Below, piece after piece: positions 5,645 through 50,305 of a stretch of 64,000 bases of DNA; position 1 is the first letter of the stretch, and each line of letters opens with the position of its first letter. The notes beneath the pieces are model-generated. The model made no database searches, had not been told where the DNA came from, and worked only from the letters and a program-made list of their open reading frames with translations. The DNA is from an uncultured Gammaproteobacteria bacterium (GTDB taxonomy: Bacteria > Patescibacteriota > Microgenomatia > Daviesbacterales > UBA10151). The translations under genes were made by a program, and so were the position numbers. Location of the stretch: the NCBI GenBank assembly GCA_964446685.1, contig CAYUPO010000004.1, forward strand, positions 20,164 through 84,163. Reading direction: 5' to 3'.

Positions 5645-5660
5645 ACACTATATGTTGTGG
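5645..5660. promoter_or_regulatory. candidate NrdR box
   Basis: The reverse complement ccACAACATATAGTGT matches the 16-bp NrdR-box consensus acaCwAtATaTwGtgt at 14 of 16 positions. A second, weaker candidate lies at about 5722-5737 (ATACAAGATATTGTGC). Confidence 0.3.
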
Positions 5661-5798
5661 CTCAACCCTTACCTCACTCAACATATCTACCATAACATAA
5701 GGGCAAGAATTAGTGTCAATATACAAGATATTGTGCAGCGAGCATAAATAGTTATGTGTTTAGGAGAAACATATAAAGATGAAGCTGACTAAATTGTT

Positions 5799-6215: not shown

Positions 6216-6219
6216 TTAA

Positions 6220-6795: not shown

Positions 6796-6830
6796 AATTT
6801 ATTAGTATTAAGTATTAAGTATTAAGTATT
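6796..6830. repeat. short tandem repeat (TATTAAGT)x4
   Basis: Seen directly: ttagtattaagtattaagtattaagtattaagag. Confidence 0.8.
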
Positions 6831-6919
6831 AAGAGAAAAGTAGCAAATTCCCTAGATTCATTACGATTTACTTACTTATACACAATAATAATATTACTCT
6901 AAATAACGATACTACACAC

Positions 6920-7309
6920 ATGTCACTGTCCAATCCTGAAATATCCTCCAAAGATTCCCCCACTTTTTTTCATCAGGTAGCACAAATACTTCACGATACC
7001 TATCCTCAGCCAGACTCAGACATCTTATCTGATTTATTAGCAGATATAAATCCTAAAAAAGCGGCCTTTTTTGCTGATTATTTAAATAGCCCAGAGTTTA
7101 AAAATCCAAATGAAATCAGACGCTTAATAGAAAGTCATGTTATTACTGAGTTAGCTGATGCAATCCAGAATCCCCAGAGACTAGCCGGAAGGAAGAGAGA
7201 AGAACCTACCCCAATAAGACAACTAAATGTAACCAGAAGAAGAGATCTATCTAGTGGAAAACCCAACAACTATCCCCAACCCCCACCCCGTTTAATACGT
7301 CTTCCATAG
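6920..7309 (+). CDS. hypothetical protein (Pro-rich C-terminus)
   Basis: 129-aa ORF with no recognisable motif. Confidence 0.35.
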   Translation: MSLSNPEISSKDSPTFFHQVAQILHDTYPQPDSDILSDLLADINPKKAAFFADYLNSPEFKNPNEIRRLIESHVITELADAIQNPQRLAGRKREEPTPIRQLNVTRRRDLSSGKPNNYPQPPPRLIRLP

Positions 7310-7480
7310 TTGAGTTAGCCTTGGTCTTACCTAAAGCTTGTAGTAATATTACATTTGACAACTGCGTGAAAAGTTTTGTACACTGTGAAAACAGATGAAG
7401 ACACAAGGCTTACTTCTAATCCTGAGCTTCCTTTCATTCTTAATGTTCTCAATAGTCACCTCAGTCTCAGCACATATCCA

Positions 7481-7970
7481 CTAAAGTAAAATTCAAAATA
7501 ACAAATTCAAAATTTCAAACAAATTCAAAAAATAAAATCAAAAACTAGCTTTGCTGGGATTTAAATAAGATACTACTTAATATCTTTAATAGTTCATTTG
7601 ACTCAAGAAGTAACATTTTTCTTTCTTTTTCTAGTATAGGGTTATTTACCGTTTCAACTTCTAACATCTCAAGCCAATATCTACTTTCTTTAGACTCTTT
7701 CCTCGAAATTCTGATTCTATGCAGAAAATCTTTTTTACTAAGAGATTCATTAGCTTCAATATAGTTAGCTCCTACCGAACCTGAAGATCGAACCACTTGT
7801 TTTCCATCTTCTAATGCTCCAATTGTTTTTGGTAGCGATTTAACAAATATTCTGACTTTTTTCCCAAACTCAAGTGTTCTATCTTCTAAATCATATTGTT
7901 TTGGATTTTCTATTTTATCCATTTGAATTTATTTGAAATTTTGAATTTGTTATTTTGAATTTTACTTTAG
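7481..7970. mobile_element. cassette bounded by a perfect 39-bp inverted repeat, carrying a four-helix-bundle gene (IVS-like / MITE-like element)
   Basis: 7481-7519 ctaaagtaaaattcaaaataacaaattcaaaatttcaaa is the exact reverse complement of 7932-7970. The right arm overlaps the last two codons of the PPIase gene. Confidence 0.45.
7545..7922 (-). CDS. four-helix-bundle protein (TIGR02436; 23S rRNA intervening-sequence protein family)
   Basis: 125 aa; matches the family pattern EF.KK...LP......Q..RS..SVGANYIEANES...KDF..R..IS.KE..ES..WL. Confidence 0.8.
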   Translation of the reverse strand: MDKIENPKQYDLEDRTLEFGKKVRIFVKSLPKTIGALEDGKQVVRSSGSVGANYIEANESLSKKDFLHRIRISRKESKESRYWLEMLEVETVNNPILEKERKMLLLESNELLKILSSILFKSQQS

Positions 7971-8636
7971 AGGCAGAATTGAAACAGTATTCATCAAATC
8001 TCCAACAGCTATCTTACTTACCACATCCTGCCCTTTAATAACCTTGCCAAAGATAGTGTAATTTGGCGGGAGACTGGTATTATCATCCAGCATAATAAAA
8101 AACTGACTTCCATTTGTATTGGGACCTGAATTTGCCATCGCAACTATTCCTTTTAAGTATTTTTTAGTAACTGGTTCATCAGCAAATTTGTAACCAGGTC
8201 CGCCTGTACCATTTCCTATCGGATCTCCTCCCTGAATCACAAATCCAGGAACCACCCGGTGAAAACTAAGACCATTATAAAATTCATCATTTGTTAAGGA
8301 AATAAAATTTGTAGCCGCTTTTGTTGCTTCTGGATAAATTTCAAACTCAATAACACCTTTATTAGTATCCAAAACTGCTTTTTTATTTTTTAATTCTTCC
8401 GCTGGCATATCTGCAAAAGGCTGAGTATATCTTTTCTTGGTTAACTGCGGAGCTGAACTCTGTTCAGGCTCAGGTTGGAGTTGATTTGTGTCCTGTTCCA
8501 TCGATAATCCAGACGAACTTGCAGCCGGAGTAGCAGATGGTTCAACTGTAAATGAACTAAGCTGAGAATAACTTAAAGCAATTACTGCTATTACGGTAAG
8601 CGCAATAAAACCAATTACAAAATGTTTCTGTGTCAT
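7962..8636 (-). CDS. ppiB: peptidyl-prolyl cis-trans isomerase, cyclophilin type, with N-terminal membrane anchor
   Basis: HRVVPGFVIQGGDP, MANSGPNTNGSQFFI and other cyclophilin motifs; N-terminal transmembrane helix. Confidence 0.9.
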   Translation of the reverse strand: MTQKHFVIGFIALTVIAVIALSYSQLSSFTVEPSATPAASSSGLSMEQDTNQLQPEPEQSSAPQLTKKRYTQPFADMPAEELKNKKAVLDTNKGVIEFEIYPEATKAATNFISLTNDEFYNGLSFHRVVPGFVIQGGDPIGNGTGGPGYKFADEPVTKKYLKGIVAMANSGPNTNGSQFFIMLDDNTSLPPNYTIFGKVIKGQDVVSKIAVGDLMNTVSILPLK

Positions 8637-8683
8637 GTCGTCCTATATATATCAGAAGAGATGATGAGGTGCAAGAGAGAAAA

Positions 8684-9085
8684 TTATTCTGGAACCTGGA
8701 TAGTTGATAAAAATGCGATAACTGCACCCAAACCGGTACCCATAGCCCCGGCTGAAAAAACAGTACTAAGAGATTCAGGCAAAGAAACTGCTCTAAATAA
8801 ACTGGAAGCTGATGTCAAAAAACCAAATTCAAAATCCGATAAAACTTGTTGCACATACAATTCCCCCAGCAACCCTCCAACTAAAAATCCTGAAATTACC
8901 AAAGTTGCAAACTTAATATTTCTTTTGGCTGTATCCGATAAAGAAACAGCTAAAGATTCTTTTTTAAGCAGTGAACTTACATCAATCGGCTGATAAACCC
9001 GGTCAGACATCCTGACCAGACTTTGTCCAGTTCCATAAAAATAATTTAAATCATGTTTCATAAATCTATTATTGCCGAGACGCAA
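8684..9085 (-). CDS. hypothetical membrane protein
   Basis: 133-aa ORF with hydrophobic helices; the start codon is uncertain (internal Met MKHDLNY is possible). Confidence 0.35.
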   Translation of the reverse strand: MRLGNNRFMKHDLNYFYGTGQSLVRMSDRVYQPIDVSSLLKKESLAVSLSDTAKRNIKFATLVISGFLVGGLLGELYVQQVLSDFEFGFLTSASSLFRAVSLPESLSTVFSAGAMGTGLGAVIAFLSTIQVPE

Positions 9086-9204
9086 CAGAATAAAATCAAA
9101 TATCTGTAGGTTTTTTGTTAGACATTGTGAGAATTTCTTACTTTAAACTTCAAAATACTATTATTGATGTGTTTGCATACAAAGAAGTTGTGTAAGTATA
9201 ATTT

Positions 9205-9684
9205 TTGAAAGAGGTAAATTTAATGCAAGAACACAGCCATAAGCTCCAAAACAAATATACCTCTCCCTACTTTAATCTGGCGATCAAACACCGGATCCAA
9301 ACCCTTCGTATTAATATGTATTGCAGTACCGCTTTTTTAACCACAAATTTTCTTCCTCAGACAACAGCTATTTTAGAAGAAACTTTACCCAGTGTCTTGA
9401 TGACTGAGTGTTTTAATGAAGAAAATCTGCCTTTCAGGGATGAAGTTAATAACACTGAAATTGCTCATTTGTTTGAACATGTCTTACTTGAATATTTATG
9501 TTTAGAAAAAATAGCTGATGGCACAAGGGATGCCTGTTTTAGCGGCCGGACACACTGGAACTGGATAAAATATCCTAAAGGAAGTTTTTTTATCAATATT
9601 ACAATGGAAAAAACAGATTTGGTTTTTCTCCCGACCGCTTTACAAAAAACGATTGTTTTGATGGAACAAATTTTAAAGAGTTAA
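9205..9684 (+). CDS. hypothetical protein
   Basis: 159-aa ORF with no recognised motif. Confidence 0.4.
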   Translation: MKEVNLMQEHSHKLQNKYTSPYFNLAIKHRIQTLRINMYCSTAFLTTNFLPQTTAILEETLPSVLMTECFNEENLPFRDEVNNTEIAHLFEHVLLEYLCLEKIADGTRDACFSGRTHWNWIKYPKGSFFINITMEKTDLVFLPTALQKTIVLMEQILKS

Positions 9685-9686
9685 GT

Positions 9687-9875
9687 TTACATTACTTTTC
9701 TTTGTCCACCTTTTCTTCCAGCAGCCCGTGCTTCATCACTACTCCATTCATGAGCAATTCCTTTTGCATGAGCAGCTTTTCCACCTTTGGAAGCGATAGC
9801 ACTTACCTGATCTGAAGACATCGCTGCAAAGCCTCGTTTACTTTTCCTTTTTTTTGATGTTTTTTTATCATCCAT
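9687..9875 (-). CDS. stress-induced KGG-repeat protein (YciG/GsiB-like)
   Basis: 62-aa basic protein with SKGGKAAH...GRKGGQ KGG-type motifs. Confidence 0.55.
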   Translation of the reverse strand: MDDKKTSKKRKSKRGFAAMSSDQVSAIASKGGKAAHAKGIAHEWSSDEARAAGRKGGQRKVM

Positions 9876-10079
9876 GATTTTTTTTCACCTCCACTCGTAA
9901 TAAAACTATAACTCGGCAATTTTAACGTCCAGTCAATTTGAGGTAAGAATCTGGCAAATGTCATCCCCCTCAATTTAGTTAAAATAATCAAAATTCTCAT
10001 CCAAACTCAGCAATTTCTTACTTTATAAGCCCGAAAGTAATAGTTGCGTAAGAATGTGCCTAAAATAGGGTAAATTAGC

Positions 10080-10115: not shown

Positions 10116-10790
10116 ATGCTGAACAATATTTTGATTATCGAAGACGATAGCGGTCTGCAAAAGTATCTCAAAGAGTTCTTAATTGATAACGGTTTTACTG
10201 CCAATATTGCCGGAGACGGTGTTACTGCTTTGAGAATAATCAAAAAATCTCCACCTGATTTAGCTATTTTAGATCTGGGGCTACCGGATATGACCGGTGA
10301 ATCAGTATGTCTGGAAATCCGCAAAAACTATCCTAATTTGCCAGTTATTATTCTGACTGCCAAAGACACAGTGGCAGATGTTGTAGCAGGTCTCAACCTG
10401 GGTGCAGATGATTATGTGACCAAACCATTCGTAGCCGATGAACTACTTGCCCGTATTACTGCCAGACTGAGAAATCAAAATACTTCTAAAGATAATAAAT
10501 TAACAGTAGCCGATCTGGAACTAGACAATAAAACATTTGAAGTCTCCCGAAACGGTACTCAGATCCAACTAACTCCGCAGGAATTTAAACTACTTGAATA
10601 CCTGATGAACAATAAAGGCCGAATATTGACTAGAGAAATGATTTTAAACAGAGTCTGGCTTTATTCCCCTGATATTGAAACCAGAGTAGTCGATGTCTAC
10701 ATGGGCTATCTCAGAAAAAAGATCGACCAGGATTTTGAAAAGAAACTTCTCCACTCAGTCAGAGGTTTCGGGTACATGATCAAAGATTAA
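10116..10790 (+). CDS. two-component response regulator, OmpR/PhoB family
   Basis: Receiver domain (DD...D54 context ILDLGLPDM, K at TKPF) plus a C-terminal winged-helix DNA-binding domain (LTPQEFKLLEYL...VRGFGY). Confidence 0.9.
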   Translation: MLNNILIIEDDSGLQKYLKEFLIDNGFTANIAGDGVTALRIIKKSPPDLAILDLGLPDMTGESVCLEIRKNYPNLPVIILTAKDTVADVVAGLNLGADDYVTKPFVADELLARITARLRNQNTSKDNKLTVADLELDNKTFEVSRNGTQIQLTPQEFKLLEYLMNNKGRILTREMILNRVWLYSPDIETRVVDVYMGYLRKKIDQDFEKKLLHSVRGFGYMIKD

Positions 10791-10792
10791 AC

Positions 10793-11872
10793 TCAAAAAT
10801 CCCCACCATTATTTGCAGCTTTTTCCAAAGCATTTTGATACCAATGGATTTTCTGATCTCTTAAATGAATGTTAAACAAAACATCACATTGAGGTTGAGG
10901 TATACCTAACAGAAATCTCAAAACATACATCATATGTGGAAATCGTCTTGCATAATGCTCTAACTTACGATCCAATTGATTTGCAGGTGTATTTTCTTTT
11001 ATTTTTTGAATTACACTTTCAGGTAAAGGATATAGGCTAAAATCAATTCCGGCACTCTGCAAATCATCAATTTGCTTTTCAACTTGGTTGTCACTTTGAG
11101 CCATAAGCTCAGGTGTGGCCATTCTCCTCATGAGAGATGGAACTTTTCCAAAATCACCATCATAGACAATACCCTGATCAACTAGGATTTTTTCGATTGC
11201 TTCTTCAGATAATCCCTCCTGCAACACATATTTTCTGATTTGAGCTGCTCGTGTTTTGTTATCAAAATCAGACGGGACACCCCAGGTTCTAACATTTGAC
11301 CTTTTACCAATTTTTTTTGCCGCTTCACGTCCTTTATCCAGATTACCCAAGACTACTGGATCAGTGATTAATATCCAGCTAGGGCCTTTCCCCTCATCTC
11401 TGGCTCTTTTATTATGCAGAGCGATTTCTTCAAGTTTAGGATCAACTGTAGAATAGATCGCATCTGATACTTTTCCCCAAGTCTCAGAGGACCAAGCTGA
11501 CTGATGCACACCCTGCTCTTCAACAACTTTTGTAACAAATCTATCAAAGGGCAAAATTTGAGGAAGCACACCAAAACGCATCATTCTACTAACCTGTGCT
11601 CTTTTTGCCAAAAGCTCCTGTCCTTCCCTTGGAACAATAGTTTGTATACGGTCATTTAACAATTCATGCATTCTATTTAAAACTTGAACTATAATCGCTG
11701 TTTTACCTGCCCCCCCTTCCCCTATGATTTGAATTCCATCAATTTGAGGATTTTCTAGAACATCCGAAATTATTGCGGGACCTGCAGGATATCCTGATCG
11801 ATTTAATGAATTATCTAACACTTCATGAGAACAAGAAGATATCGCTTTCTCTTTAGGATTTATCATATACAT
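10793..11872 (-). CDS. P-loop NTPase of unknown function
   Basis: Walker A GEGGAGKT; co-directional with, and overlapping the 3' end of, the histidine kinase gene. Confidence 0.45.
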   Translation of the reverse strand: MYMINPKEKAISSCSHEVLDNSLNRSGYPAGPAIISDVLENPQIDGIQIIGEGGAGKTAIIVQVLNRMHELLNDRIQTIVPREGQELLAKRAQVSRMMRFGVLPQILPFDRFVTKVVEEQGVHQSAWSSETWGKVSDAIYSTVDPKLEEIALHNKRARDEGKGPSWILITDPVVLGNLDKGREAAKKIGKRSNVRTWGVPSDFDNKTRAAQIRKYVLQEGLSEEAIEKILVDQGIVYDGDFGKVPSLMRRMATPELMAQSDNQVEKQIDDLQSAGIDFSLYPLPESVIQKIKENTPANQLDRKLEHYARRFPHMMYVLRFLLGIPQPQCDVLFNIHLRDQKIHWYQNALEKAANNGGDF

Positions 11873-34436: not shown

Positions 34437-35879
34437 ATGATACATGACTCACCAACTATGCCGCTGCCCAGCACACTCGTATTTCTTGACACTGAAACCA
34501 CCGGCGGAAGCCTGAGGACTGACCGGGTGATTGAGATCGGTATGCTTCGGGTGGAAAACGGTAAAGTTGTCAAAAAGTTTACTTCACTGATCAACCCTCA
34601 AAGATATGTCCCGCCGGAGATTGAAATGCTGACAGGTATTTCCGGAGCTATGGTAGACACTGCTCCAACTTTCTTTGAACTAAAAGATCAAATTCTGGAA
34701 ATGATGGAAGATGCTGTTTTTGTAGCCCATAATGCCCGGTTTGATTATGGATTTATTAAGACCGAATTTAAAAGGTTGGGAATAAATTTTTCTGCTAAAC
34801 ACTTATGCACTGTCAAACTTTCCCGCAATTTATATCCCCAATACAGTCATCACAATCTTTCAATACTAATCGAACGGCATGGATTCACAATTGAGAACCG
34901 CCACCGGGCTTTTGATGATGCTGAAGTACTTTGGAAGTTTTACCAGAAAATCCAGACAGAATTTCCAGCCGAACTAATTGAAGCTGCCGTCAGTAAAGCT
35001 CAAAAAAGACCAAGTATTCCGACCGGCCTTTCCGGAGATGATCTGGATGCCTTGCCGGAAAATCCCGGAGTTTATATTTTTTATGGAGAAAGTGGAATCC
35101 CACTCTATGTTGGAAAAAGCGTTAATATCAGGGACCGGGTTTTATCTCATTTTGCCGCTGATCACACCTCATCCCTGGAACTTAAAATTACCCAGCAAAT
35201 CAAATCAATCGAAACCATTCAGACCGAAGGAGAACTGGGAGCATTGCTTAAAGAAGCCTATTTGGTTAAAAAATTGCAACCACTTTATAACCGGAGGCTT
35301 CGTCAGAAAAATAAATTATTAGTCCTGAAATATAGCGAAAATGAACAGGGTTACTTTAGTTGTAACTATGGTATTCAAGACAATATAGACCCACAGGAAA
35401 TAGACAAGATTATCGGTGTTTTCAGAAGCAAAAAGTCTCTGCAGGAATTTCTCTTTTCAATTGCCAAAGAGCATAATTTATGTGAGAAATTACTTGGTGT
35501 AGATAAGACATCTTCTAGCTGCTTTGGATACCGTTTAGGAAGGTGTAAAGGAGCTTGCAGCAATAAAGAAAAACCTTTGTTTTACAATTTTAGATTTATG
35601 GAAATAATCGGTAAAATGAAGTTTAAAAAGTGGCCGTTTGAACAGCCAATTGTGATCGATGATTACAGCAATGACGGAACAACCAGGGACAGTTTTATTA
35701 TCAACAACTGGTGTGTTATCGGCAAAATGAATACCTCCAGTAACAAACTTGAAACAACTTTAGATATTGGTTTTAACCTGGATACTTATAAGATTCTAAA
35801 CTCCTGTCTGAACAAACCAAAGTACGCCAAACACATCCGCACCATCAACCAGGACCAAATGCAGTTGTTTCAGATTTAA
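34437..35879 (+). CDS. DnaQ-like DEDD 3'-5' exonuclease fused to a GIY-YIG nuclease domain
   Basis: Exonuclease motifs LVFLDTETTG ... FVAHNARFDYGF ... HRAFDDA, then the GIY-YIG motifs GVYIFYGESGIPLYVGKSVNIRDRVLSH. Confidence 0.7.
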   Translation: MIHDSPTMPLPSTLVFLDTETTGGSLRTDRVIEIGMLRVENGKVVKKFTSLINPQRYVPPEIEMLTGISGAMVDTAPTFFELKDQILEMMEDAVFVAHNARFDYGFIKTEFKRLGINFSAKHLCTVKLSRNLYPQYSHHNLSILIERHGFTIENRHRAFDDAEVLWKFYQKIQTEFPAELIEAAVSKAQKRPSIPTGLSGDDLDALPENPGVYIFYGESGIPLYVGKSVNIRDRVLSHFAADHTSSLELKITQQIKSIETIQTEGELGALLKEAYLVKKLQPLYNRRLRQKNKLLVLKYSENEQGYFSCNYGIQDNIDPQEIDKIIGVFRSKKSLQEFLFSIAKEHNLCEKLLGVDKTSSSCFGYRLGRCKGACSNKEKPLFYNFRFMEIIGKMKFKKWPFEQPIVIDDYSNDGTTRDSFIINNWCVIGKMNTSSNKLETTLDIGFNLDTYKILNSCLNKPKYAKHIRTINQDQMQLFQI

Positions 35880-41195: not shown

Positions 41196-41266
41196 TGCCG
41201 AGTCGTCTAATGGTAGGACGACAGATTCTGGATCTGTCTATTGGGGTTCAAATCCCTGCTCGGCAA
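41196..41266 (+). tRNA. tRNA-Gln (anticodon CUG)
   Basis: Acceptor tgccgag/ctcggca, D arm cgtc-taatggtag-gacg, anticodon arm acaga-ttCTGga-tctgt, T arm tgggg-ttcaaat-ccctg; no encoded CCA. Confidence 0.7.
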
Positions 41267-41311
41267 CAAGATTAATTTCATAAACTGCAATGAACGAAGT
41301 TCAAGCAGCAA

Positions 41312-41389
41312 CGACAGATTCTGGATCTGTCTACTTCCGCAGGAAGGAGGAGTTTACTCCTCATTGGGGTTCAAATCCCTGCTCGGCAA
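41312..41389 (+). repeat. partial duplicate of the tRNA-Gln 3' half with a 30-nt insertion (att-like scar)
   Basis: acagattctggatctgtcta + cttccgcaggaaggaggagtttactcctca + ttggggttcaaatccctgctcggcaacaa. There is no complementary 5' acceptor strand upstream. Confidence 0.6.
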
Positions 41390-41507
41390 CAAAGGCTTAT
41401 TTGATCACCATTTGCGAAATTATAGCGATTTTGGGGTTGAGGCTGTGTTAATATACCTCAACTAGATCTTTTGAAATAAAGCATAATTGAACAGCATTTA
41501 TGTGGGA

Positions 41508-42014
41508 TTATATTTTGTTAAACCTTATAAGAGAATCATAAGGTTTAACACCAGTTTCAATTCGTTCAGGGATATCATAAGGTGAGTGAACAACTAAAAA
41601 TTCCAAATTTTTGAACTTTTCTGGCAACTCATGTCCCAGGTTTGTTGAATTTATCCCATTCCATAAATACCAATAACCAACCTTTCCGGACTTATAATCA
41701 ACGAATGCAGATATAAACTCTGGAAATATAAAATCTTTAACTTCGCTATGACCAACAATCTTCCATAAACCTATTTTGATAGCAGCCATCAATCCAGTTA
41801 TTACAGGTGGAAAAAGTTCTTTTCTTGCAATAATGTCTTCAATTGGAATCTGCTCTTCTAAATTGGTAATCAGATCAAAAACTTTTATTAGTGGACCATT
41901 TTTTGAATCCCAAAAGACATATTGTCCAAAAGCCTTTTTATTGTTTGACAAAGGAATTTCAAAAATATCACCCACTTTAATAAATTTATTATTCATCGGC
42001 AAATTATAACCCAA
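41508..42014 (-). CDS. putative immunity protein for the orphan Rhs C-terminal toxin
   Basis: 168-aa cytoplasmic ORF immediately downstream of, and overlapping, the orphan toxin cassette. The assignment is by position only. Confidence 0.35.
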   Translation of the reverse strand: MGYNLPMNNKFIKVGDIFEIPLSNNKKAFGQYVFWDSKNGPLIKVFDLITNLEEQIPIEDIIARKELFPPVITGLMAAIKIGLWKIVGHSEVKDFIFPEFISAFVDYKSGKVGYWYLWNGINSTNLGHELPEKFKNLEFLVVHSPYDIPERIETGVKPYDSLIRFNKI

Positions 42015-42540
42015 CTCTATTTAAAATATCACTTCCTTTTGTAACTGATTCATTATATATAGGGTTTTGAGGTGAAATACTGTTGATTTTGTTCAATAAG
42101 TTTCCAAGTCCGCTATTTTCAATTAATACTTGTTCAACTGCTTTAGCATCAGATCTTGTTAATCCGGTTAATCCTGGAATCCCTTGAAGTGATATGCCTT
42201 TAGTTGCTAAATGTTCCGAAGCTCTTCTTGCTAAATCATTAGTGATTCCATAGTAATAAGGAACTCCATTTTTAAGTGCCTGATAAACAGACACTGCTGC
42301 TTTAACCTCATTAGTACAATCACCATCTCTACATGCTGCCGCAGTACAGACGGAGCCAAGTTTTAGAAGTCCTCCAACAAACTGACCTGAAGGATCTGAT
42401 AGATTAATAGGATCAGTATTTGCAAAATTGTACCCATTTTGTGTATTAGGCTGATTAATGATACCTTCAACAGGATCTTTTGAGATAAATCCTCCTATTG
42501 TTGGGTCATAGTAGCAGATCTTTGTAAAAATTATAAATAC
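42004..42540 (-). CDS. orphan Rhs C-terminal cassette: core-end motif plus GIY-YIG-like nuclease toxin domain (no N-terminal body, no ATG at the 5' edge)
   Basis: The reverse-strand reading frame gives YYDPTIGGFISKDPVEGIINQPNTQNGYNFANTDPINLSDPSG, paralogous to the full-length Rhs core end. It is followed by VSVYQALKNGVPYYYGITNDLARRASEH...E...N, the GIY-x10-YIG-R-H-E-N pattern. Confidence 0.5.
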   Translation of the reverse strand, partial: VFIIFTKICYYDPTIGGFISKDPVEGIINQPNTQNGYNFANTDPINLSDPSGQFVGGLLKLGSVCTAAACRDGDCTNEVKAAVSVYQALKNGVPYYYGITNDLARRASEHLATKGISLQGIPGLTGLTRSDAKAVEQVLIENSGLGNLLNKINSISPQNPIYNESVTKGSDILNRVGL

Positions 42541-42554
42541 AACACCAATTGGTA

Positions 42555-42866
42555 TCAGTATATATTAAACAATATTATGCCTACAAAAAATGTCAAAAAA
42601 GCAATTATGAAGCTAAACCTTACTGCTAGAATTTCCTTTCTTAATTTATTATTTTTAAGATTTTTAGAAAAAAGATCATGGTAATACATTTCAGATTCTT
42701 CTGTGGTAGTTCGCTTATAATACAAAAAGTCACTAAAACCACTATCAGGCCTTTTGTTTATTTTTCGAAGTTTTTGAAAATACTTTACCGTTGTAACAAA
42801 CAAAAGTAATCCAATACCAAAATAAACAATAAAAAATGTAATTCTTATAGTTAAACTCAGATCCAT
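42555..42866 (-). CDS. small two-transmembrane-helix membrane protein, putative immunity protein of the full-length Rhs toxin
   Basis: 103 aa with two hydrophobic helices, directly downstream of the rhs gene. Confidence 0.4.
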   Translation of the reverse strand: MDLSLTIRITFFIVYFGIGLLLFVTTVKYFQKLRKINKRPDSGFSDFLYYKRTTTEESEMYYHDLFSKNLKNNKLRKEILAVRFSFIIAFLTFFVGIILFNIY

Positions 42867-42888
42867 ATAATCGCTTTATAAAACTTAT

Positions 42889-45800
42889 TTAGAATAGAAC
42901 AAATAAGGCATCTTTAACAGCCTCTAAAAATGTATATTTAGACGTATACTCAATTCCGGCAGGTTTAACATCAACAGGTAAGGCACCGATTCCTCCACTG
43001 ATTCCCATATTAGTTTGGTTTAACTGCTTAGTAATGGGATCAAAATTACCTTGCCCAGTAACCCCTACACGCACAGGAAAAGGAAGATCAATAGAACCTC
43101 CTGATACTACACTCATTCCATGGAGATCTGACATTTTTGAGGCAGATTTGCTATTTAACCAAGTAATATCTCCTCCTAGTGCAATATTCGGATTTGCACC
43201 AAAACTAACTGATTTTGTAGCCCCAACCTGCCAGTTATCCCCAACACCAATACATCTTTGTGTCGAGACATAGCCTCCTGCACCAGCAGAACAGCTAAAA
43301 CATATACCATTTACGGCTAACCCTGAGGGATCTGACAGATTAACTGGATCACCATTTGCAAAGTTGTATCCATTCTGAGTTTGTGGATTTGTTAAGATTC
43401 CTTCAACTGGATCCTTAGAGATAAAGCCTCCTGTGGCCGGGTCGTAGTACCGGGCTCTCATGAAATAGAGGTTTGTTTTGTCATCCAGATCTTCACCTTT
43501 ATATTGGAAATTAGCTGCTGGACCTCCGGTGAGGGAGTTACCGAAGGCATCATATGTATAAGCCTGAATATTGCTACCACCTGCTCCAACTACAAATCTG
43601 GTATTTCCCAGTCCATCCTCCAGATAGTATTTTCTATCAGAGTATCCATCTTTTCCTTCACTAACAAGCCCTACACCATAAATATAACTTGATGAATTAT
43701 TGTTTACATCAACCGTATACAAAACTTTCGACAAGTCACCCGAATTATCATTCACATATTTTAATACTGTAGTTGCTCCGGCTTTCTCAGCAATTCTATT
43801 ACCTTTTCCATCATAGACATATCCGGCATTCTCTCCAGTTGCTGGATTATTGAAACTGATTAATTTATTTTCAAAGTTGTATCCAAAAGATTTTCCATTG
43901 CCCGCTGTAGTGGAATTGGTTCTATTACCATTGTTATCGTAGGCATAAATAGTGCTTCCCTGGGTCGTCAACTGATTATCATTATTGTATGCATAATTTA
44001 TCTGTTGCCCCTGTTTTGTACTTGTCAGCCGATTTCCAACTTTATCATAAGTGTAGCCAAATGAATTATTGTTTGGGTAAGTTGCAGTTATCAAACGCAT
44101 CAGGTTGTCATAAGCAAATGTTGTTTGAGTATTTTCAGGGGATGTGACCTGATTATATTCAAGTTTAACCTGAGCTCCACCTCCCCATTCAAAATATTCC
44201 ATCACAATATTATGTGTACCTGCTGTTAGATTTTTATATACTGAATAAGTTGTTGGAGACTGTCCTCTCCATCCATCTAATACCTTTTCTCCGTCTATAA
44301 ATAGTCTAACCCCATCATCTCCGGTTGCTTTAAACTGATACATACCTGCAGCAAAATTTTGAGCTTTAGTCCATCTGGCTACAAAGTAATCCGATGTCAA
44401 TGAAGGATCTGGTGAAGATCCATCCCAGTTAAAGTTAATGTTTGCATCATTTCTTGAAAATGTCGGAGCTGTGTTTGGAAAGACAAAACCTGAATCAGTC
44501 GCAACATTCCAATATTGACCGGAAAAACCACTATCTGCTCCTGAGAGCTGAGTCATATCGAACTTAGCCACAGCACCCCAACCATCCTCATAGTATTCCA
44601 TAACTACTGTATGATTACCGGAAGTCAGACTTTTATCAGCAGTATAAGTTGTAGGGCCCTGATTGATCCATTTATCAATAATTCTTTCCCCATCAACATA
44701 CAGTCTAACTCCATCATCAGCAGTCACTTTAAACTGGTACACTCCAGCAGATAAGTTAGCTGTTTTAGTCCACTTTGCCATAAATCGATCAGTATCAATA
44801 AGAGGCTCAGGTGAGTTACCTTGCCAGTCGAAGTTAATAGTTGAATCTGTCCTGGTTAATTGGGGAGTGGTAGACGGTATTGTAAAAGAAGTTCCTGACC
44901 CTAAATTCCAATACTGTCCGGTAAAATTGGTCATTGTTGAAGTTGTAGAAATCTGACTAATATCAAGTTTTGCCAATGCACCCCAAGCGTTTTCGTAGTA
45001 TTCCATAATAATTGTATGGTTACCTGCTGCCAAATTTTTATTTATTGAATAAGTAGTAGGACCTTGGTCAACCCATTTATCAATCACTTTTTCTCCATCT
45101 ATAAATAACCTGACTCCATCATCTCCAGTTACGCTAAATTGATAATTTCCGGCAGTCAGATTGGTTGTCTTAGTCCATCTGGCTACAAAGTTGTCTACAT
45201 TAATACCAGCTGCCGGAGAATTTCCTCCCCAATCAAAGTTCACCGTTGTATCAGTTCTGGTGAGATTTGGTGTAGTAGTTGGAATTACCGGATTACTTCC
45301 TGCAGGTACATTCCAGTATTGACCTGTAAATCCCGTAATTGTTGCCTCAAGTTGCGTTACCTCCAATTTAGCGACAGCATCTCCACCATTCTCATAATAT
45401 TCCATTATCACCGTGTGATTACCAGCAGTTAGATTTTTTTCAATTGTTTCTGATGTAGTACCCTGGTCAACCCATTTATTAATAACCTGTTGCCCATCTA
45501 TAAACAACCTAAAACCATCATCACCGGTAACTTTAAAACTATAATTCCCGGCTGCAAAATTTGCTGTTTTCGTCCAGCGAGCAACAAAATTATCAGTATT
45601 AATCGGTGATCCAGGTGTTCCCCCTGCCCAGTTAAAGTTAACCGTGTTATCAGTTCGGGATAATTGCGCGCTAGTTGAAGGAATTGCCGGACTACCACCA
45701 CCTGCTGTATTCCAGTACTGAGCAGAAAAGTCTTTTAGTTCAAAAACCCCAGAGGGAGGGGGAGTTGATAGGCTTGTAGGTATTACTGTTGCATCCAGTA

Positions 45801-48800
45801 ATGAATTTTCGGTAACGGCTGTGATATTTCCAAGATTATTTCTAGTGTAATTAAATTTTGCCAGTGCAATATTTCCCTGTAGATGAGAAACTTCAGTTAT
45901 TTTATTGGCATTATCATATTGGTAATTTGTTTTTATTCCATTTGGATAAGTTCTTGAAGACAAGGTACTATTTTTATTATATTGATAATTAGTCTGCCCA
46001 CCGTTCCAATCATTTATATTGAGTAATCTTCCAGATCCATCATAATTATAAGAAACAGATCGGCTATCCGGATAAGTTATCTTGGTCAGATTATTCGCCA
46101 TATCATATTCATATTGAACCATAGCATTATTTGAATCCTTAGCAGAAATTAAACGATCAAAGACATCATAGGTATATGTTGTTGTTCCTGAAGGATCTAT
46201 CATCGTCAGAAGATTGCCCCGGTTATCATATGTGTATGAAATATTTGTTGTGTTAGGATAGTTTATTTTTTTCAGTCTATTTAGACTGTCATATTCATAA
46301 GTTGTAGTTTGGTTGTTACTATCTATTCTTTTGCTGATATTTCCCACCTGATCATATTCCCATTTCATTACTTTCCCCAAAGGAGTCGTGCTCTGAGTTC
46401 GCTGATTTAATTTGTCATATGCAAATTGAGTAGTTCTGTTTAAAGCGTCTTGCTTGGAAGTTATATTCTGGTATTGATCATATCCATAATTTGTTACTCC
46501 ACTTAGCGCGTCGGTCACTGAATTAAGACTTTGGTTCGCGTTATAACTTAACTGCGTTGAAGAATTATTAGGCTCAGTTATCCTGATTAATTTATTCTCA
46601 GCATTAAATACATTTGTAGTTGTTCCCAAAGAAGTAACAGAAGTCAGCAGATTATTATTGTTATCATATGTAAACGCTGTGGTTTTATTATCAGGGTCTT
46701 TGACCAAAGTTAACCTACCCAAAGTGTCATATGTATAGGTTGTAATATTTGACTGGGGATCTACAGAAGTCAAAATATTATTTAAGCTATCTCTTGTATA
46801 TGCTGCTGTTTTATTAAGCGGATCTGTTACACCAATTAATTGTCCTTTTGGATTGTATGAATATTTAGTGACTTTTGATCCCTCAGTTGTCTGCACCAAA
46901 TTGCCTGCTTGGTCATAACTATAGCTGGTAATTTTATTTCCACTATATCTTTGGTCAGTTGTTTTTGTTACATTATTTTTCACGTCATATTCAAAATTAA
47001 CACTAACCCCTGCAGGATCTTTTTTAGAAACAACATTTCCATTTGCATCATAATTAAAAGTAGAAATGTTTCCTTTTTTATCCTTTACAGTGAGAGGAGC
47101 GAACTCCGTTCCGTAGGTATATTCCTGTGCGTTATTTAAAGCATCCTGCTCTTTAAGAACTCTTACTTTATTATCAAAAATAGTCTTTCCCACCCGACCT
47201 TGATTATCTGATGAAGTAACAGTATTGGTAGTATTATCATAAGCGTATGTAACTATTTTTCCGTTAGCATCTTTTTGTGTGAGTAGCCGACCATCAGCAT
47301 TATAAGTATTAGTCAACACTAGCTGATTTAATCGATTAGTAATGGTTAGTAAACGATTATTGCTATCGTAAGCATATTTTGTTGCGCTACCTTTTGGATC
47401 ATTGACTGAAGTTAAGTTTCCTAAAGAGTCATAACCATAAGTTGTAACTCTTCCAGCCCAATCAGTAATAATATTTACTAATCCAGTAGTTGCGTTATAA
47501 GCCAAATTCAAATAATGGTTATTATCATCTTTTATCTGTGTCAGCTTACTATTACCGTCATAATAATAACTAATTTTATTCCCATTTTTATCTTTAATCT
47601 GTGTTAGTTTAAGTGAGGCATCAAAAATATACTCTGTTTGATCTATTGTTCTGGCAAAGTAACTTCCATCAGGCTTAATAAAAAATTTAGTATGAAAAGC
47701 AGGGTCTAAGGCAGTGTATTCACCACCACAATATCGATACTCAAATGTTTCTCTTTTACCATCCTGAAATGTTAAAGCAACTTTTCTATATCCATAGCCT
47801 TCATTTGGGCATCCAAGTTTTTCATCCCAACCCCAGTATGTTTGAGTCAAACTAGCTGGAAATAAATCCCATCCATTACCTATACTATTTTGAGCACTAC
47901 TATAAGAATTATATGCTCTGTTCAACTGCAATGATAAATCATTACTAACAGAAGTTGAAAAATCAGAAACTGCGGTAGAATACGATCCTACACTTCTAAA
48001 CGCCTCCGCTTCCACTGCAACTGAATCATAAGTTTGACCATTGCTGACAAAAGTCCAATGAACATCTTCTTTATTAACTGACTGAGATTGAGAAGCACTT
48101 TTTAAAGTACTAGCCATCCCAGAATCAGCAATATACGTATTGGCAGTTGAGAAATCCGCACCACCGCTAATTTGAGTATCGGTATTCCCTTGAGTCACCC
48201 ACGGAGTATATAAACGTGGTTTAGTTCGGGCCGTAGGATTATAGTTTGGCTGATAATTCTTTGCCCATTCAAAATTATTAGCAATTCCGGCATCTTTGAT
48301 CCATTTAATAACTCCAACAATTTGAGACAACTGTTTCGTTTGTAAATATGATGGTGATTCCTTAGCAAATTCATCATAAAGATCAGTTTGCTGTTGAGCA
48401 AAAGCAATCGCTGCATTGTTCCACTGTGGTGAGTTAGCTGCACTTGTTGGTTCTGTTAAAATCTGCATTTTAACTTGATCAAAAATAAAAGATTTTGACA
48501 CATCATCTTTTTTCAAACTTACTAGTTTTGGTGTAATCCACCATCTAGATCCTGGTGATCCAGAAGTAATTCCATTCTCTTGATATCTTTGCCAAAAAGA
48601 TTTGTAGCCTGCTACAGTAGATACAAGTACAGAACCATCAGCATTATAACCTTGACTATATTGTTTCATTTTATAATCAGCATCAAGAATAGTTTGCCCA
48701 AATTTAGTATCTTCTAAACCATCACTAAATATGACCTGCATTGGTTGAGTACGATTAGTATCATTGACTTGCGTTTCAAGACTTACAAATGGAATTGCAT

Positions 48801-49161
48801 TATTAAAAATAAGCGACCTAATAGTTACGGCTAAATCATCTTTATTAAACTTTGGTGCAGATGTATTTGTTTTTCCAATAAAAACAATTCGGTCAAGAGT
48901 ACTATCGTAATAAGCTCCAGTATACTCTGACATATTTGCCAAAAATGTAGCCGCTTGGTTTAATGCAACTCCTCCCGGTCTGACACCTGGAGCACCAACT
49001 GCTCCCCCTACTCCTCCACATGACTGAGCATTTACTGAAGAAGGACTTATTGAAAGCAACAAGTAATTTGAAATTGAAGTTAAAGTCAGAACCAATATCA
49101 AGGAAAGTGAAATAGTAGAATTAAAAACTTTGCTTAATTTACTGCTTTTTTTATTTATCAT
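42889..49161 (-). CDS. Rhs/YD-repeat polymorphic toxin (2090 aa): signal peptide, YD repeats, four tandem PA14 domains, Rhs core with DPSGL, variable C-terminal toxin domain
   Basis: Many YxYDxxGN(L/R) repeats; four ~135-aa repeats (F(T/S)GQYWN...DFxA(R/K)WTKTxN...GDDGxRLxxDG...); core end ARYYDPATGGFISKDPVEGILTNPQTQNGYNFANGDPVNLSDPSGL, then a ~150-aa Gly-rich tail. Confidence 0.9.
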   Translation of the reverse strand: MINKKSSKLSKVFNSTISLSLILVLTLTSISNYLLLSISPSSVNAQSCGGVGGAVGAPGVRPGGVALNQAATFLANMSEYTGAYYDSTLDRIVFIGKTNTSAPKFNKDDLAVTIRSLIFNNAIPFVSLETQVNDTNRTQPMQVIFSDGLEDTKFGQTILDADYKMKQYSQGYNADGSVLVSTVAGYKSFWQRYQENGITSGSPGSRWWITPKLVSLKKDDVSKSFIFDQVKMQILTEPTSAANSPQWNNAAIAFAQQQTDLYDEFAKESPSYLQTKQLSQIVGVIKWIKDAGIANNFEWAKNYQPNYNPTARTKPRLYTPWVTQGNTDTQISGGADFSTANTYIADSGMASTLKSASQSQSVNKEDVHWTFVSNGQTYDSVAVEAEAFRSVGSYSTAVSDFSTSVSNDLSLQLNRAYNSYSSAQNSIGNGWDLFPASLTQTYWGWDEKLGCPNEGYGYRKVALTFQDGKRETFEYRYCGGEYTALDPAFHTKFFIKPDGSYFARTIDQTEYIFDASLKLTQIKDKNGNKISYYYDGNSKLTQIKDDNNHYLNLAYNATTGLVNIITDWAGRVTTYGYDSLGNLTSVNDPKGSATKYAYDSNNRLLTITNRLNQLVLTNTYNADGRLLTQKDANGKIVTYAYDNTTNTVTSSDNQGRVGKTIFDNKVRVLKEQDALNNAQEYTYGTEFAPLTVKDKKGNISTFNYDANGNVVSKKDPAGVSVNFEYDVKNNVTKTTDQRYSGNKITSYSYDQAGNLVQTTEGSKVTKYSYNPKGQLIGVTDPLNKTAAYTRDSLNNILTSVDPQSNITTYTYDTLGRLTLVKDPDNKTTAFTYDNNNNLLTSVTSLGTTTNVFNAENKLIRITEPNNSSTQLSYNANQSLNSVTDALSGVTNYGYDQYQNITSKQDALNRTTQFAYDKLNQRTQSTTPLGKVMKWEYDQVGNISKRIDSNNQTTTYEYDSLNRLKKINYPNTTNISYTYDNRGNLLTMIDPSGTTTYTYDVFDRLISAKDSNNAMVQYEYDMANNLTKITYPDSRSVSYNYDGSGRLLNINDWNGGQTNYQYNKNSTLSSRTYPNGIKTNYQYDNANKITEVSHLQGNIALAKFNYTRNNLGNITAVTENSLLDATVIPTSLSTPPPSGVFELKDFSAQYWNTAGGGSPAIPSTSAQLSRTDNTVNFNWAGGTPGSPINTDNFVARWTKTANFAAGNYSFKVTGDDGFRLFIDGQQVINKWVDQGTTSETIEKNLTAGNHTVIMEYYENGGDAVAKLEVTQLEATITGFTGQYWNVPAGSNPVIPTTTPNLTRTDTTVNFDWGGNSPAAGINVDNFVARWTKTTNLTAGNYQFSVTGDDGVRLFIDGEKVIDKWVDQGPTTYSINKNLAAGNHTIIMEYYENAWGALAKLDISQISTTSTMTNFTGQYWNLGSGTSFTIPSTTPQLTRTDSTINFDWQGNSPEPLIDTDRFMAKWTKTANLSAGVYQFKVTADDGVRLYVDGERIIDKWINQGPTTYTADKSLTSGNHTVVMEYYEDGWGAVAKFDMTQLSGADSGFSGQYWNVATDSGFVFPNTAPTFSRNDANINFNWDGSSPDPSLTSDYFVARWTKAQNFAAGMYQFKATGDDGVRLFIDGEKVLDGWRGQSPTTYSVYKNLTAGTHNIVMEYFEWGGGAQVKLEYNQVTSPENTQTTFAYDNLMRLITATYPNNNSFGYTYDKVGNRLTSTKQGQQINYAYNNDNQLTTQGSTIYAYDNNGNRTNSTTAGNGKSFGYNFENKLISFNNPATGENAGYVYDGKGNRIAEKAGATTVLKYVNDNSGDLSKVLYTVDVNNNSSSYIYGVGLVSEGKDGYSDRKYYLEDGLGNTRFVVGAGGSNIQAYTYDAFGNSLTGGPAANFQYKGEDLDDKTNLYFMRARYYDPATGGFISKDPVEGILTNPQTQNGYNFANGDPVNLSDPSGLAVNGICFSCSAGAGGYVSTQRCIGVGDNWQVGATKSVSFGANPNIALGGDITWLNSKSASKMSDLHGMSVVSGGSIDLPFPVRVGVTGQGNFDPITKQLNQTNMGISGGIGALPVDVKPAGIEYTSKYTFLEAVKDALFVLF

Positions 49162-49864
49162 TTTTTAATCCAACTTCCTGAGCAGATGCAGATGAACTAG
49201 ACACTGCTGTATTTTTTTCTTTAGTTGGAGACGATGCTTCTTTATCTTTTACTTTTAGTGATGTTAATGATTCCTTTTTTTGTGATTTTTTAATCTTCTT
49301 AACCTTCTTGGGGCTTTCAGCCATCTTTTTCTGTTTATTATCTTCTAAAGTTCCCTGGGAAGAGAGTTCGTCATTTACAGTTTTTTTGACTGATAAATTA
49401 TCTTCTTCTTCAATAAAATTTAATTTTGCATCAAAACTTATCACTTGCTTTGAATTTGGTAGAACATATATATTAGGAAGTTCTAAAGTTGTGTTATCAA
49501 TTCCAGTTACTCCCTGAACATTGTGAATAAAATGAATAGCATCTCGTCTGATATTAGTTTTGAGTTTAGAAAAAGGATAAGGCTTATCAGTGCCATTGGA
49601 AAGAACAAATGAAAAACGAACTGTATCCCCACCATCCATCTCACCATTATTATTTAAATCACCCTTTTCAGTTAGCTGAATATCTGAAGTTATTTCTATT
49701 TTAGAATCATCAACTCCTTTTGGAGTCTTTTCACTTCCTAAAAGTTTTTTTCCAGATTCTATAAGATCATCAAAGGTAAGAGCTTGAGCAATTGAGGCAG
49801 AGAAAGACAGGAAAACAAGAAGTGCTAGGATAAGAACTATTTTTAAATTTTTAAATTTGCCCAT
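49151..49864 (-). CDS. secreted hypothetical protein with Lys-rich C-terminus
   Basis: Signal peptide MGKFKNLKIVLILALLVFLSFSASIAQA; overlaps the rhs start by 11 bp. Confidence 0.5.
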   Translation of the reverse strand: MGKFKNLKIVLILALLVFLSFSASIAQALTFDDLIESGKKLLGSEKTPKGVDDSKIEITSDIQLTEKGDLNNNGEMDGGDTVRFSFVLSNGTDKPYPFSKLKTNIRRDAIHFIHNVQGVTGIDNTTLELPNIYVLPNSKQVISFDAKLNFIEEEDNLSVKKTVNDELSSQGTLEDNKQKKMAESPKKVKKIKKSQKKESLTSLKVKDKEASSPTKEKNTAVSSSSASAQEVGLKNDK

Positions 49865-49914
49865 TAAGATTTTATGGTTCAGTGAATAATAACAAAGTTG
49901 ATTTAATTGTCAAT

Positions 49915-49949
49915 ACATCATAAAAACCACGGGCTTTCGCTCCGTGGTT
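49915..49949 (-). terminator. hairpin terminator (bidirectional) after the 49997..50305 gene
   Basis: aaccacgg-gctttcgct-ccgtggtt flanked by A/T runs on both sides. Confidence 0.5.
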
Positions 49950-49996
49950 TCATTTTTTCTGTCTGAAGTCCGTCCTCATCAAACAAATTTTATTTT

Positions 49997-50305
49997 TTAT
50001 TTAGAAACTATTTTTTTAACTTCCTCAGTTGTCTCCTCAGCTTTTCCTTCTAGTTGAGCTGTTGCTTCATCTTTCATGCTAGCAGCATATTCTTTGGCTT
50101 TTTCACCAACAGCTTTTGCAACTTCATGAGCTTTCTGATTTATTTTTTCATCTTTCATTGCCATTGCTCCGGCAACTCCCAGACCTGCTCCGACTATTGC
50201 ACCGGCAACACCAGCCACAACAGGATTAATATCAGAATGATCATTTTTAGCAGAATTTTTTTGTCCCTGTTTATTATGATTTTGTGTATTTGAATTATTT
50301 TGCAT
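49997..50305 (-). CDS. small glycine-zipper protein with Lys/Glu-rich tail (stress-protein-like)
   Basis: VVAGVAGAIVGAGLGVAGAMA segment followed by a KAxE-rich region; 102 aa. Confidence 0.4.
   Translation of the reverse strand: MQNNSNTQNHNKQGQKNSAKNDHSDINPVVAGVAGAIVGAGLGVAGAMAMKDEKINQKAHEVAKAVGEKAKEYAASMKDEATAQLEGKAEETTEEVKKIVSK

Follow-up and report, generated by a model that had tools for sequence, protein, structure and literature searches.

The window, a 64,000-nucleotide (nt) stretch of DNA, carries a minus-strand locus built around a 2090-residue Rhs/YD protein, and we identify this locus with high confidence as an Rhs polymorphic-toxin island of known type. Open reading frame (ORF) and tRNA calls on the window place five minus-strand reading frames there, all directed at a tRNA-Gln gene. 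The original prediction had claimed five such genes and a succession of main rhs, immunity gene, orphan C-terminal domain (CT) and immunity gene; every frame was found at its place facing the tRNA, and the order is correct. The island as a whole follows established polymorphic-toxin logic, and its new part is the pair formed by the C-terminal toxin tip of the full-length Rhs protein (hereinafter designated the main tip) and a 103-residue protein with two transmembrane (TM) segments encoded downstream of it. The explanation that we favour overall, at slightly better than even confidence, is a Sec-exported Rhs polymorphic-toxin operon that serves contact-dependent antagonism through a membrane-acting main tip. 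Labels of the type L001 to L060 hereinafter denote relative loci.

Main tip and its membrane partner

The full-length Rhs protein (42889-49161 (-)), assigned from Pfam, NCBIfam and homology to solved shells, contains an Rhs-associated core (43321-43554 (-); NCBIfam Rhs_assc_core TIGR03696, residues 1870-1948, E 1e-17) that ends in DPVNLSDPSGL followed by AVNG. A DPxG[LW]-type motif is thus present at the expected autoproteolysis site. Beyond it lies the main tip, 142 residues that are 15% Gly, rich in Ser and Val and marked by three conserved Cys near the start; the single His is not conserved, and the last ~15 residues have the look of a short amphipathic helix. Comparison with the corresponding tip of L012 divides it into a conserved N-terminal part of ~58 residues that holds the three Cys (43144-43317 (-)) and a hypervariable, Gly/Ser/Val-rich C-terminal part of ~84 residues that closes with the amphipathic helix (42892-43143 (-)).

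The original prediction had recognised nothing similar to the main tip, and the searches agree. No match was obtained in Pfam or NCBIfam even at E 10, and among PDB sequences only a chance-level match to an outer-membrane protein appeared (E 0.18). A single protein, P0001, matched in a word-indexed search of 5.8 billion clusters, and a full HMMER search of 1.84 billion representatives returned P0001 again; two near-threshold repeat proteins in the HMMER output were judged spurious on inspection. GTDB representative genomes, JGI metagenome contigs, plasmids and phages yielded nothing, and none of 80 generic metagenomic Rhs loci contained a relative of the main tip or of its immunity protein. 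Of the profile searches proposed at the outset for both cassettes and their downstream proteins, those on the orphan side found Imm26 and a weak GIY-YIG match, and those on the main tip found no family.

A profile search with the small membrane protein returned only the three loci already found plus L012. The L012 Rhs (positions 3668-9940 of that locus) carries a tip 73% identical to the query that both large protein searches had missed and that was reached via its immunity gene, so that the count of two relatives is a lower bound. Clustering of long Rhs proteins can hide the tips of non-representative members, and all counts of main-tip relatives are to be read in the same way; both points weigh against too narrow a view of the distribution. 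Judged by these searches, the main tip represents a new sequence family with relatives found at just two other loci, a lower bound, and the tip/immunity pair, which has no relatives outside three closely related loci, appears very narrowly distributed.

The main-tip family occupies the main position in the window and in L012 and the orphan position in L001, and a homologue of the two-TM protein comes next each time. L012 is syntenic with the window, at 91% nucleotide identity over 9.7 kb, and encodes a 2090-residue Rhs with the same tip family followed by a 100-residue homologue of the membrane protein; the L012 locus contains no orphan nuclease, Imm26 gene or tRNA-Gln. In L001, P0001 forms an orphan cassette behind an Rhs that is disrupted by an insertion sequence (IS) and bears a different Gly-rich tip with a 117-residue two-TM protein. 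P0001 is followed by a 100-residue protein 41% identical to the 103-residue protein of the window. Tip and membrane-protein identities are 73% and 37% between the window and L012, 72% and 41% between the window and L001, and 92% and 74% between L012 and L001, two series that were taken as following the same rank order.

Two alleles, those of the window and L012, locate the variable region within the gene. Their nucleotide identity is 93-100% in the shell and 78-87% at the core end. Over the first ~58 codons of the tip it is 92-98%, with 92% amino-acid identity, and over the last ~84 residues it falls to 53-72%, with 55% amino-acid identity; the membrane-protein gene is ~50% identical at the nucleotide level. 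The last ~84 residues of the tip and the downstream gene therefore diverge together, which is the signature of a cognate toxin and its immunity protein and divides the tip into two parts. On these comparisons the 103-residue protein is most probably the cognate immunity protein of the main tip: as expected of such a protein, and in support of its earlier nomination as an immunity candidate, it accompanies the tip and co-varies with it at three loci.

Hydropathy places the two hydrophobic segments of the 103-residue protein (42555-42866 (-)), whose homologues always stand after the same tip, at residues ~5-27 and 81-101. The loop between them comprises ~53 residues with 13 K/R against 7 D/E, and by the positive-inside rule both ends of the protein would lie outside, with ~4 and 2 residues exposed, and the loop would be cytoplasmic. 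The best-conserved region of the family is the membrane-proximal part of the loop (LFS.NL..NKLR.EIL.VR.S), and the TM helices vary.

That the locus is no antibacterial toxin/immunity system at all, the Rhs protein acting as an adhesin or as an effector directed at a host and the small downstream ORFs encoding unrelated membrane and cytoplasmic proteins, is very improbable. Such a role would suit the four PA14 domains of the Rhs protein, which suggest glycan binding or adhesion, and an organism that is possibly a symbiont. Against it, the tips, and not the genome, are what the downstream genes travel with: the two-TM gene accompanies its tip into the orphan position of L001, L012 is syntenic upstream yet devoid of the orphan and Imm26, and in L008 an Imm26-like gene follows a URI1 tip, Imm26 being a curated immunity family. 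The original prediction would have been refuted by downstream ORFs that are conserved in relatives without rhs, and the opposite is seen.

What sets this pair apart from other new Rhs tips, which are common, is the combination of natural specificity alleles with an unusual carrier. The window and L012 alleles differ in the second half of the tip and in the immunity gene, the rest of the 6-kb gene being 93-100% identical, and so constitute a natural experiment; they offer ready-made specificity variants for asking how a membrane-embedded immunity protein recognises a toxin without hydrophobic helices.

Three further features of the relative loci touch this pair. An integrase/transposase-like frame at positions 3-1838 of L001 (SRR12487014), with the motifs HHDNGAEF and RPHQSL, runs into the fourth PA14 domain of the truncated Rhs, which points to an IS element as the cause of the disruption. 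Membership of the second Gly-rich tip of L001 and its 117-residue partner in the same superfamily is doubtful: the two tips fail to align (E 0.049 in BLASTP, probability 0.4% in hhalign), and the 117-residue partner aligns weakly with the window-type immunity proteins (23% identity, E 6e-5). Right after the L012 immunity gene, on the opposite strand (10290-10793 (-)), lies a gene for a 167-residue multi-TM protein with weak similarity to the 117-residue protein of L001 (27% identity, E 1.6e-4), which could be a stray immunity-like gene.

Rhs carrier and proposed mode of action

The Rhs nature of the 2090-residue protein is evident from Pfam RHS_repeat, which matches 18 stretches (E 2e-95), and from NCBIfam YD_repeat_2x (E 3e-65), and its shell is homologous to the solved shells 8h8a, RhsA (7q97), Tse15 and Tse5 (8cp6). 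Four tandem PA14 domains (Rhs residues ~1163-1697, 44071-45675 (-); Pfam E 2.5e-59) sit between two YD-repeat blocks and interrupt the shell. The PA14 block matches the solved PA14 domains 6qdi, 6qe7 and 6m8m, and PA14-only relatives align with Rhs residues 1162-1697. Compared with the window Rhs, those of L006-L008 are 150-365 residues shorter, so that the PA14 copy number is probably variable. From family precedent, we infer cleavage between DPSG and L at the end of the core.

The sole hydrophobic 19-residue stretch of the Rhs protein is N-terminal (Kyte-Doolittle >1.6, residues ~9-39) and forms part of a signal-peptide-like segment (residues 1-46, 49024-49161 (-)) that has a Lys-rich start and ends in SSVNAQ. 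In the classification of Zhang et al. 2012 (PMC3482391), a signal-peptide N-terminus denotes the general secretory route. No PAAR, LXG or other trafficking domain was matched in the Rhs protein by Pfam or NCBIfam, and residues ~47-470 (the N-terminal ~420) gave no family match.

Upstream of rhs, and overlapping its start by 11 nt, lies a gene for a 237-residue protein (49151-49864 (-)) that was originally predicted to be secreted; ORF analysis and hydropathy show a hydrophobic N-terminus, and the protein is likely exported. It belongs to no Pfam family. Homologues with 32-86% identity are encoded directly upstream of Rhs, with the start of which they overlap, in L012 (2968-3678), L006 (6974-7726), L007 (7-534) and L008 (9411-9980), and share a conserved core (D.N.N...DGGD..F.F...N), to which closer relatives add a Lys/Ser-rich tail. 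Judged by this conserved sequence and position, the 237-residue gene product is a conserved accessory protein of this Rhs lineage. The tips behind similar Rhs proteins differ: L006 and L007, with Rhs 72% and 49% identical to that of the window, share another type, L008 has a URI1 tip, and the L001 remnant has a further type.

WapA tips that have been characterised are RNases, and the immunity proteins that go with them are cytoplasmic, whereas the main tip has a membrane partner. In other respects the carrier resembles WapA/WapI of Bacillus subtilis and the WapA-type Rhs of Streptococcus suis (PMC12704120): a signal peptide precedes an Rhs/YD protein without the PAAR/VgrG domains of type VI secretion systems (T6SS), the LXG domain of type VII systems or type V domains, and a polymorphic tip after the Rhs core is followed directly by an immunity gene. 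Compared with the WapA type, the window Rhs has four PA14 domains in the shell, an exported accessory gene overlapping the rhs start and an N-terminal region of ~420 residues without a family match. With its signal peptide, four-PA14 insertion and overlapping accessory gene, this carrier represents a variation on the WapA-type route of Rhs delivery, which needs no secretion system and is poorly understood.

In the mechanism that we propose, the Sec pathway would export the Rhs protein via its signal-peptide-like N-terminus, the shell would enclose the tip, the core aspartyl protease would cut between DPSG and L, the PA14 array and/or the accessory protein would bind the target surface, and the tip would be released into the target. 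These shell, cleavage, binding and release steps are proposed because they are established for Rhs proteins; the roles of the tip and its immunity protein are drawn from their anatomy and from comparison. The main tip would act as a non-enzymatic membrane toxin in which the first ~58, Cys-containing residues serve insertion or entry and the last ~84, hypervariable residues form the lethal, immunity-specific part. The 103-residue protein, with its ends outside and its basic loop inside, would neutralise the toxin inside the producer membrane or at its inner face. The orphan nuclease tip would be kept as a silent reserve, and Imm26 would guard against neighbours that, like L008, use that nuclease as their main tip.

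Non-enzymatic action on the membrane is a tentative assignment, which we hold with somewhat less than even confidence. It is favoured by the composition of the tip (15% Gly, the single His not conserved) and by the nature of its partner, an integral membrane protein that exposes next to nothing on the outside. The original prediction had reasoned that a membrane-embedded partner would fit a membrane-targeting activity; the two-TM partner is borne out, and membrane targeting stays a matter of interpretation. The closest functional parallel is Tse5 (RhsP1) of Pseudomonas aeruginosa, whose ~150-residue tip, Tse5-CT, has predicted TM and amphipathic helices, is delivered by the T6SS with VgrG4 and forms ion-conducting pores that depolarise cells, and whose immunity protein Tsi5 is small and membrane-integral, two TM helices being predicted in it (PMC9637101, PMC10684867). 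The window pair shares with Tse5/Tsi5 the Rhs shell (8cp6 match), a tip of about 140-150 residues without predicted enzymatic activity and a small two-TM immunity protein. The arrangement of a tip with a small membrane protein is recurrent: in a set of 52 unrelated Rhs loci whose tips could be read, 10 have a small ORF with two or more TM segments downstream, and in two of the 10 the tip is also Gly-rich, with no homology to the main tip of the window.

Several observations weigh against membrane action. The best 19-residue Kyte-Doolittle mean of the main tip is 1.0, which leaves no stretch of TM-helix grade. Tse5-CT is helical and hydrophobic, whereas the window tip lacks TM helices, has no sequence similarity to Tse5 and is modelled as beta-rich at low confidence (mean predicted local distance difference test score (pLDDT) 35.6); no Tse5 chain came up among PDB sequences at E up to 10, though Tse5 is present there. 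The two systems also differ in delivery, Tse5 relying on the T6SS with VgrG4 and the window Rhs having a signal peptide. Finally, the cytoplasm-facing loop of the immunity protein suits a toxin that reaches the cytoplasm equally well.

A two-part toxin that acts in the cytoplasm is accordingly the alternative we take most seriously, though we consider it rather unlikely. CdiA-CT toxins begin with a conserved part and end in a hypervariable one, whose sequence changes in step with the immunity gene. The window tip is likewise in two parts with its variable half co-varying with the immunity gene; it differs in riding on an Rhs carrier instead of a filamentous two-partner secretion protein, in having no VENN motif and in showing no sequence similarity. 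On a CdiA-CT-like plan, the ~58 residues would take the toxin across the target membrane, the ~84 residues would either bind an essential target or be an enzyme that has escaped recognition, and the two-TM protein would neutralise the toxin with its ~53-residue loop. The identity breakpoint inside the tip, which parts conserved from variable residues, agrees with this plan, as do the absence of a TM-like segment from the tip and the predicted cytoplasmic position of the immunity loop, whose membrane-proximal part is best conserved while the TM helices are variable. By contrast, the tip has no conserved His and is poor in the conserved acidic or basic residues that mark nucleases, deaminases or ADP-ribosyltransferases, 84 residues are few for an enzyme, and no family or structure matched at any threshold. 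Moreover, membrane-embedded immunity is mostly reported with membrane-acting toxins, Tse5/Tsi5 being one case.

Action on the outer membrane face or on the cell wall is improbable. Here the tip would attack lipid II or peptidoglycan in the manner of glycine-rich bacteriocins or colicin M-type toxins, and the small protein would shield the target. Signal-peptide export, with no injection apparatus genes seen nearby, and a Gly-rich, Cys-containing tip that is beta-rich in its low-confidence model speak for such a toxin. However, an immunity protein that exposes only ~4 and 2 residues outside offers little shielding surface, and searches of Pfam and the other collections gave no similarity to a known wall-active domain.

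Membrane action, if it holds, leads to a bolder proposal that we regard as unlikely in its entirety: the pair could define a new Rhs payload class, in which a Gly-rich, helix-poor, non-enzymatic, two-part tip makes a beta-type or proteolipidic lesion in the cytoplasmic membrane and is intercepted within the membrane by a two-helix protein, the whole being carried by a Sec-exported Rhs with four PA14 domains and an accessory protein in a possibly episymbiotic bacterium, like those of the candidate phyla radiation (CPR). If this were true, the toxin might act on a host cell as well as on rivals. In the unrelated metagenomic Rhs loci L060 (3712-4611) and L023 (775-1903), the tips are Gly-rich (23% and 16% Gly) and two-TM proteins come after them, neither pair being similar to that of the window; tips of this composition with membrane immunity may form a recurrent, uncatalogued class.

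Orphan nuclease cassette, tip exchange and island edge

Downstream of the two-TM gene, the orphan frame is open from 42564 to 42004 and contains no ATG, GTG or TTG before GTG 42294. It reads ICYYDPTIGGFISKDPVEGIINQPNTQNGYNFANTDPINLSDPSGQ and then continues into a tail unlike the main tip. Its core-end remnant (YYDPTIGG...DPSG, 42385-42513 (-)), which has no start codon, corresponds to the final 43 codons of the core and matches the tail of NCBIfam Rhs_assc_core (E 6e-9). Compared with the core end of the main gene, it is 76.7% identical at the DNA level over these 43 codons (129 nt), 16 codons differing synonymously and 8 non-synonymously. The same gene order recurs at 99.3-100% identity in L002-L005, four Logan assemblies made independently of one another from as many sequencing runs.

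These figures bear on the suspicion, raised at the outset, that the cassette is an assembly artefact, that is, a collapsed or duplicated rhs 3' end. The two copies are just 76.7% identical with 16 synonymous codon differences, the orphan tail is wholly different from the main tail, and an identical layout is present in the four independent assemblies. Assembly duplication is excluded because of the core-end divergence and the recurrence in L002-L005, and the chance that an artefact underlies the cassette is negligible.

The orphan tip (42007-42384 (-)) begins with a Cys linker ending in AACRDGDCTNEVKAA and continues, from GTG 42294, into a domain that motifs, a structural model and homologues assign to Tox-URI1 of the GIY-YIG type. 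Several of the 26 homologues of the orphan tail are named filamentous haemagglutinin or RHS in their source, and they have in common the pattern VY-x9-Y[VY]G-x7-RR-x3-H ... [RK]AVEQ ... NxINSI. The published Tox-URI1 motif set comprises Y, YxG, R, [RK]xxE and N, its carriers are RHS and filamentous-haemagglutinin proteins, and its immunity partners are Imm14, Imm26, Imm44 and Imm51 (Zhang et al. 2012, PMC3482391). The orphan tip has all of these motifs (Y34, Y44-Y45-G46, R54, K81-x-x-E84 and N98/N101), of which R54, E84, N98 and N101 are invariant or nearly so in the 26 homologues.

Pfam GIY-YIG (PF01541) matches 20 of the 26 family members, each of them weakly (best E 5e-5, the others ranging up to 1). 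At 18.5-19.5 bits, the window copy falls short of the curated cut-off of 22.6 bits. The "GIY-YIG-like" tip of the original prediction is supported by these family matches, weak as they are, and carries the Tox-URI1 motifs. A profile of the orphan tip found nothing significant among PDB sequences. The predicted structure has a mean pLDDT of 77.6, rising to 90-93 at residues 31-90 and 111-126, and its beta-beta-alpha-beta-alpha order is that of a GIY-YIG fold. In a Foldseek search with this model, the five best matches are all UvrC GIY-YIG domains (probability 0.77-0.89), and the spacing of Y34, Y44, R54 and H58 equals that of UvrC Y19, Y29, R39 and Y43.

The last gene, which begins 7 nt past the orphan URI1 tip, belongs to the Imm26 family (41508-41996 (-)): Pfam PF15428 scores 45.9 bits against a cut-off of 23.3 bits (E 7e-12, profile positions 1-86 of 107), so that the second immunity candidate of the original prediction proves to be a published Tox-URI1 partner. 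Its ORF encodes 168 residues from TTG 42014 or 162 residues from ATG 41996, the start that gene callers pick in other assemblies. In L008, a 48%-identical Rhs has a URI1 tip in the main position and is followed by an Imm26-like gene 34% identical to that of the window. Taken together, motifs, pairing and model indicate that the orphan module is very probably an ordinary Tox-URI1/Imm26 pair with predicted metal-dependent nuclease activity. It shares with the published pairs (PMC3482391) the motif set, the RHS/filamentous-haemagglutinin carriers and the downstream Imm26, and shows no essential difference from them; particular to the window are the start-less orphan position, the lineage-specific Cys linker ahead of the domain and the GIY-YIG score below cut-off. 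The module is thus already explained and adds little.

Two features of the orphan sequence stand apart from its classification. Gene callers annotate the orphan as a 96-residue protein from GTG 42294, one codon before the first catalytic motif (SVY), and GAGG lies 11 nt upstream of this GTG; the leaderless nuclease domain may be translated independently from there. The linker after DPSG (42295-42384 (-)) is also present in the main tips of L006 (13212-13256) and L007 (5423-5467), where the toxin type is unrelated, and 2-3 Cys stand at the start of every tip seen in this lineage. Possibly the linker acts as a second element for recombination or processing.

Tips have moved between loci: the main tip of the window is the orphan of L001, and the orphan type of the window is the main tip of L008. 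The comparison supports the tip swapping by recombination that had been proposed for this locus. The arrangement recalls Salmonella and E. coli, where a main rhs is accompanied by start-less orphan rhs-CT/immunity modules and recombination between main and orphan copies expresses the orphan toxin (PMC3967940). The window shares with those arrays a full-length rhs followed by a start-less core-end fragment with another tip and its immunity gene; here, the core-end homology spans only 129 nt at 76.7% identity with no exact run >9 nt, and a second orphan has decayed to a ~88-nt vestige. Speaking against continued exchange, the longest exact run shared by the main and orphan core ends is 9 nt, which makes present-day homologous (RecA-type) exchange between the two copies doubtful. 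Another Rhs lineage may be the source of the orphan, and exchange here may be historical or may rely on other relatives as donors.

The vestige is a third Rhs core end containing GILTQPQPQNRYNFANGDQ (~41395-41482 (-)), which is interrupted by a stop and a frameshift and is 78-81% identical at the nucleotide level to the other core ends. It lies between Imm26 and the tRNA and ends exactly where a partial tRNA-Gln copy starts (41312-41390 (+)). This copy covers the tRNA from its anticodon stem onwards to its 3' end and includes a ~30-nt insertion that can form two small hairpins; it shares with the intact tRNA-Gln(CTG) at the island border (41196-41267 (+)) an exact 24-nt repeat of the tRNA 3' end that occurs in the window only at 41243 and 41366. 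Neither ARAGORN nor Rfam called a tRNA in the partial copy, and in Rfam only the intact tRNA matched. From this layout, the island edge looks like an attachment (att)-type scar of tRNA integration/deletion that would have removed a second orphan module.

Transcription and genomic setting

A promoter-like site (TTGACA, 16 nt, TATTAT, with TG; 49886-49913 (-)) precedes the accessory gene and agrees with 11 of 12 consensus positions, the best in its region, the assignment being a consensus match only. No terminator-like site was predicted between 43000 and 41100. With this promoter-like site and no internal terminator, the block resembles one transcription unit. The G+C content of the island, 0.32-0.40, is not distinct from that of the remainder of the window.

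The window genes include VanW, YflT, YkuD, two S11 carboxypeptidases, an archaeal-type AspRS, a split transketolase and a class II ribonucleotide reductase; VanW, YflT, YkuD, the AspRS and the transketolase are Gram-positive or CPR-like in character, and genes for outer-membrane functions were not seen. Such gene content makes it plausible that the source is monoderm or CPR-like. Should the bacterium be an episymbiont of the CPR type, the island would be a candidate tool for interaction with a host or competitor in a group where such tools are scarcely characterised.

Upstream of the operon, a 10-bp GC-rich hairpin (49924-49950) lies between a gene for a 102-residue protein and the Rhs promoter-like site; that it is a terminator insulating the Rhs operon is plausible. 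A small, Gly/Ala-rich, membrane-anchored protein is encoded upstream of the operon in the window (49997-50305 (-)) and downstream of the Rhs array in L001 (3428-3784 (+)), so that the array stands on opposite sides of that gene at the two loci. Elsewhere in the window (34437-35879 (+)), beside mutS and mutL, a fusion of a DnaQ-type 3'-5' exonuclease with a Cho/UvrC-N-like (GIY-YIG) domain is encoded, a housekeeping gene unrelated to the toxin.

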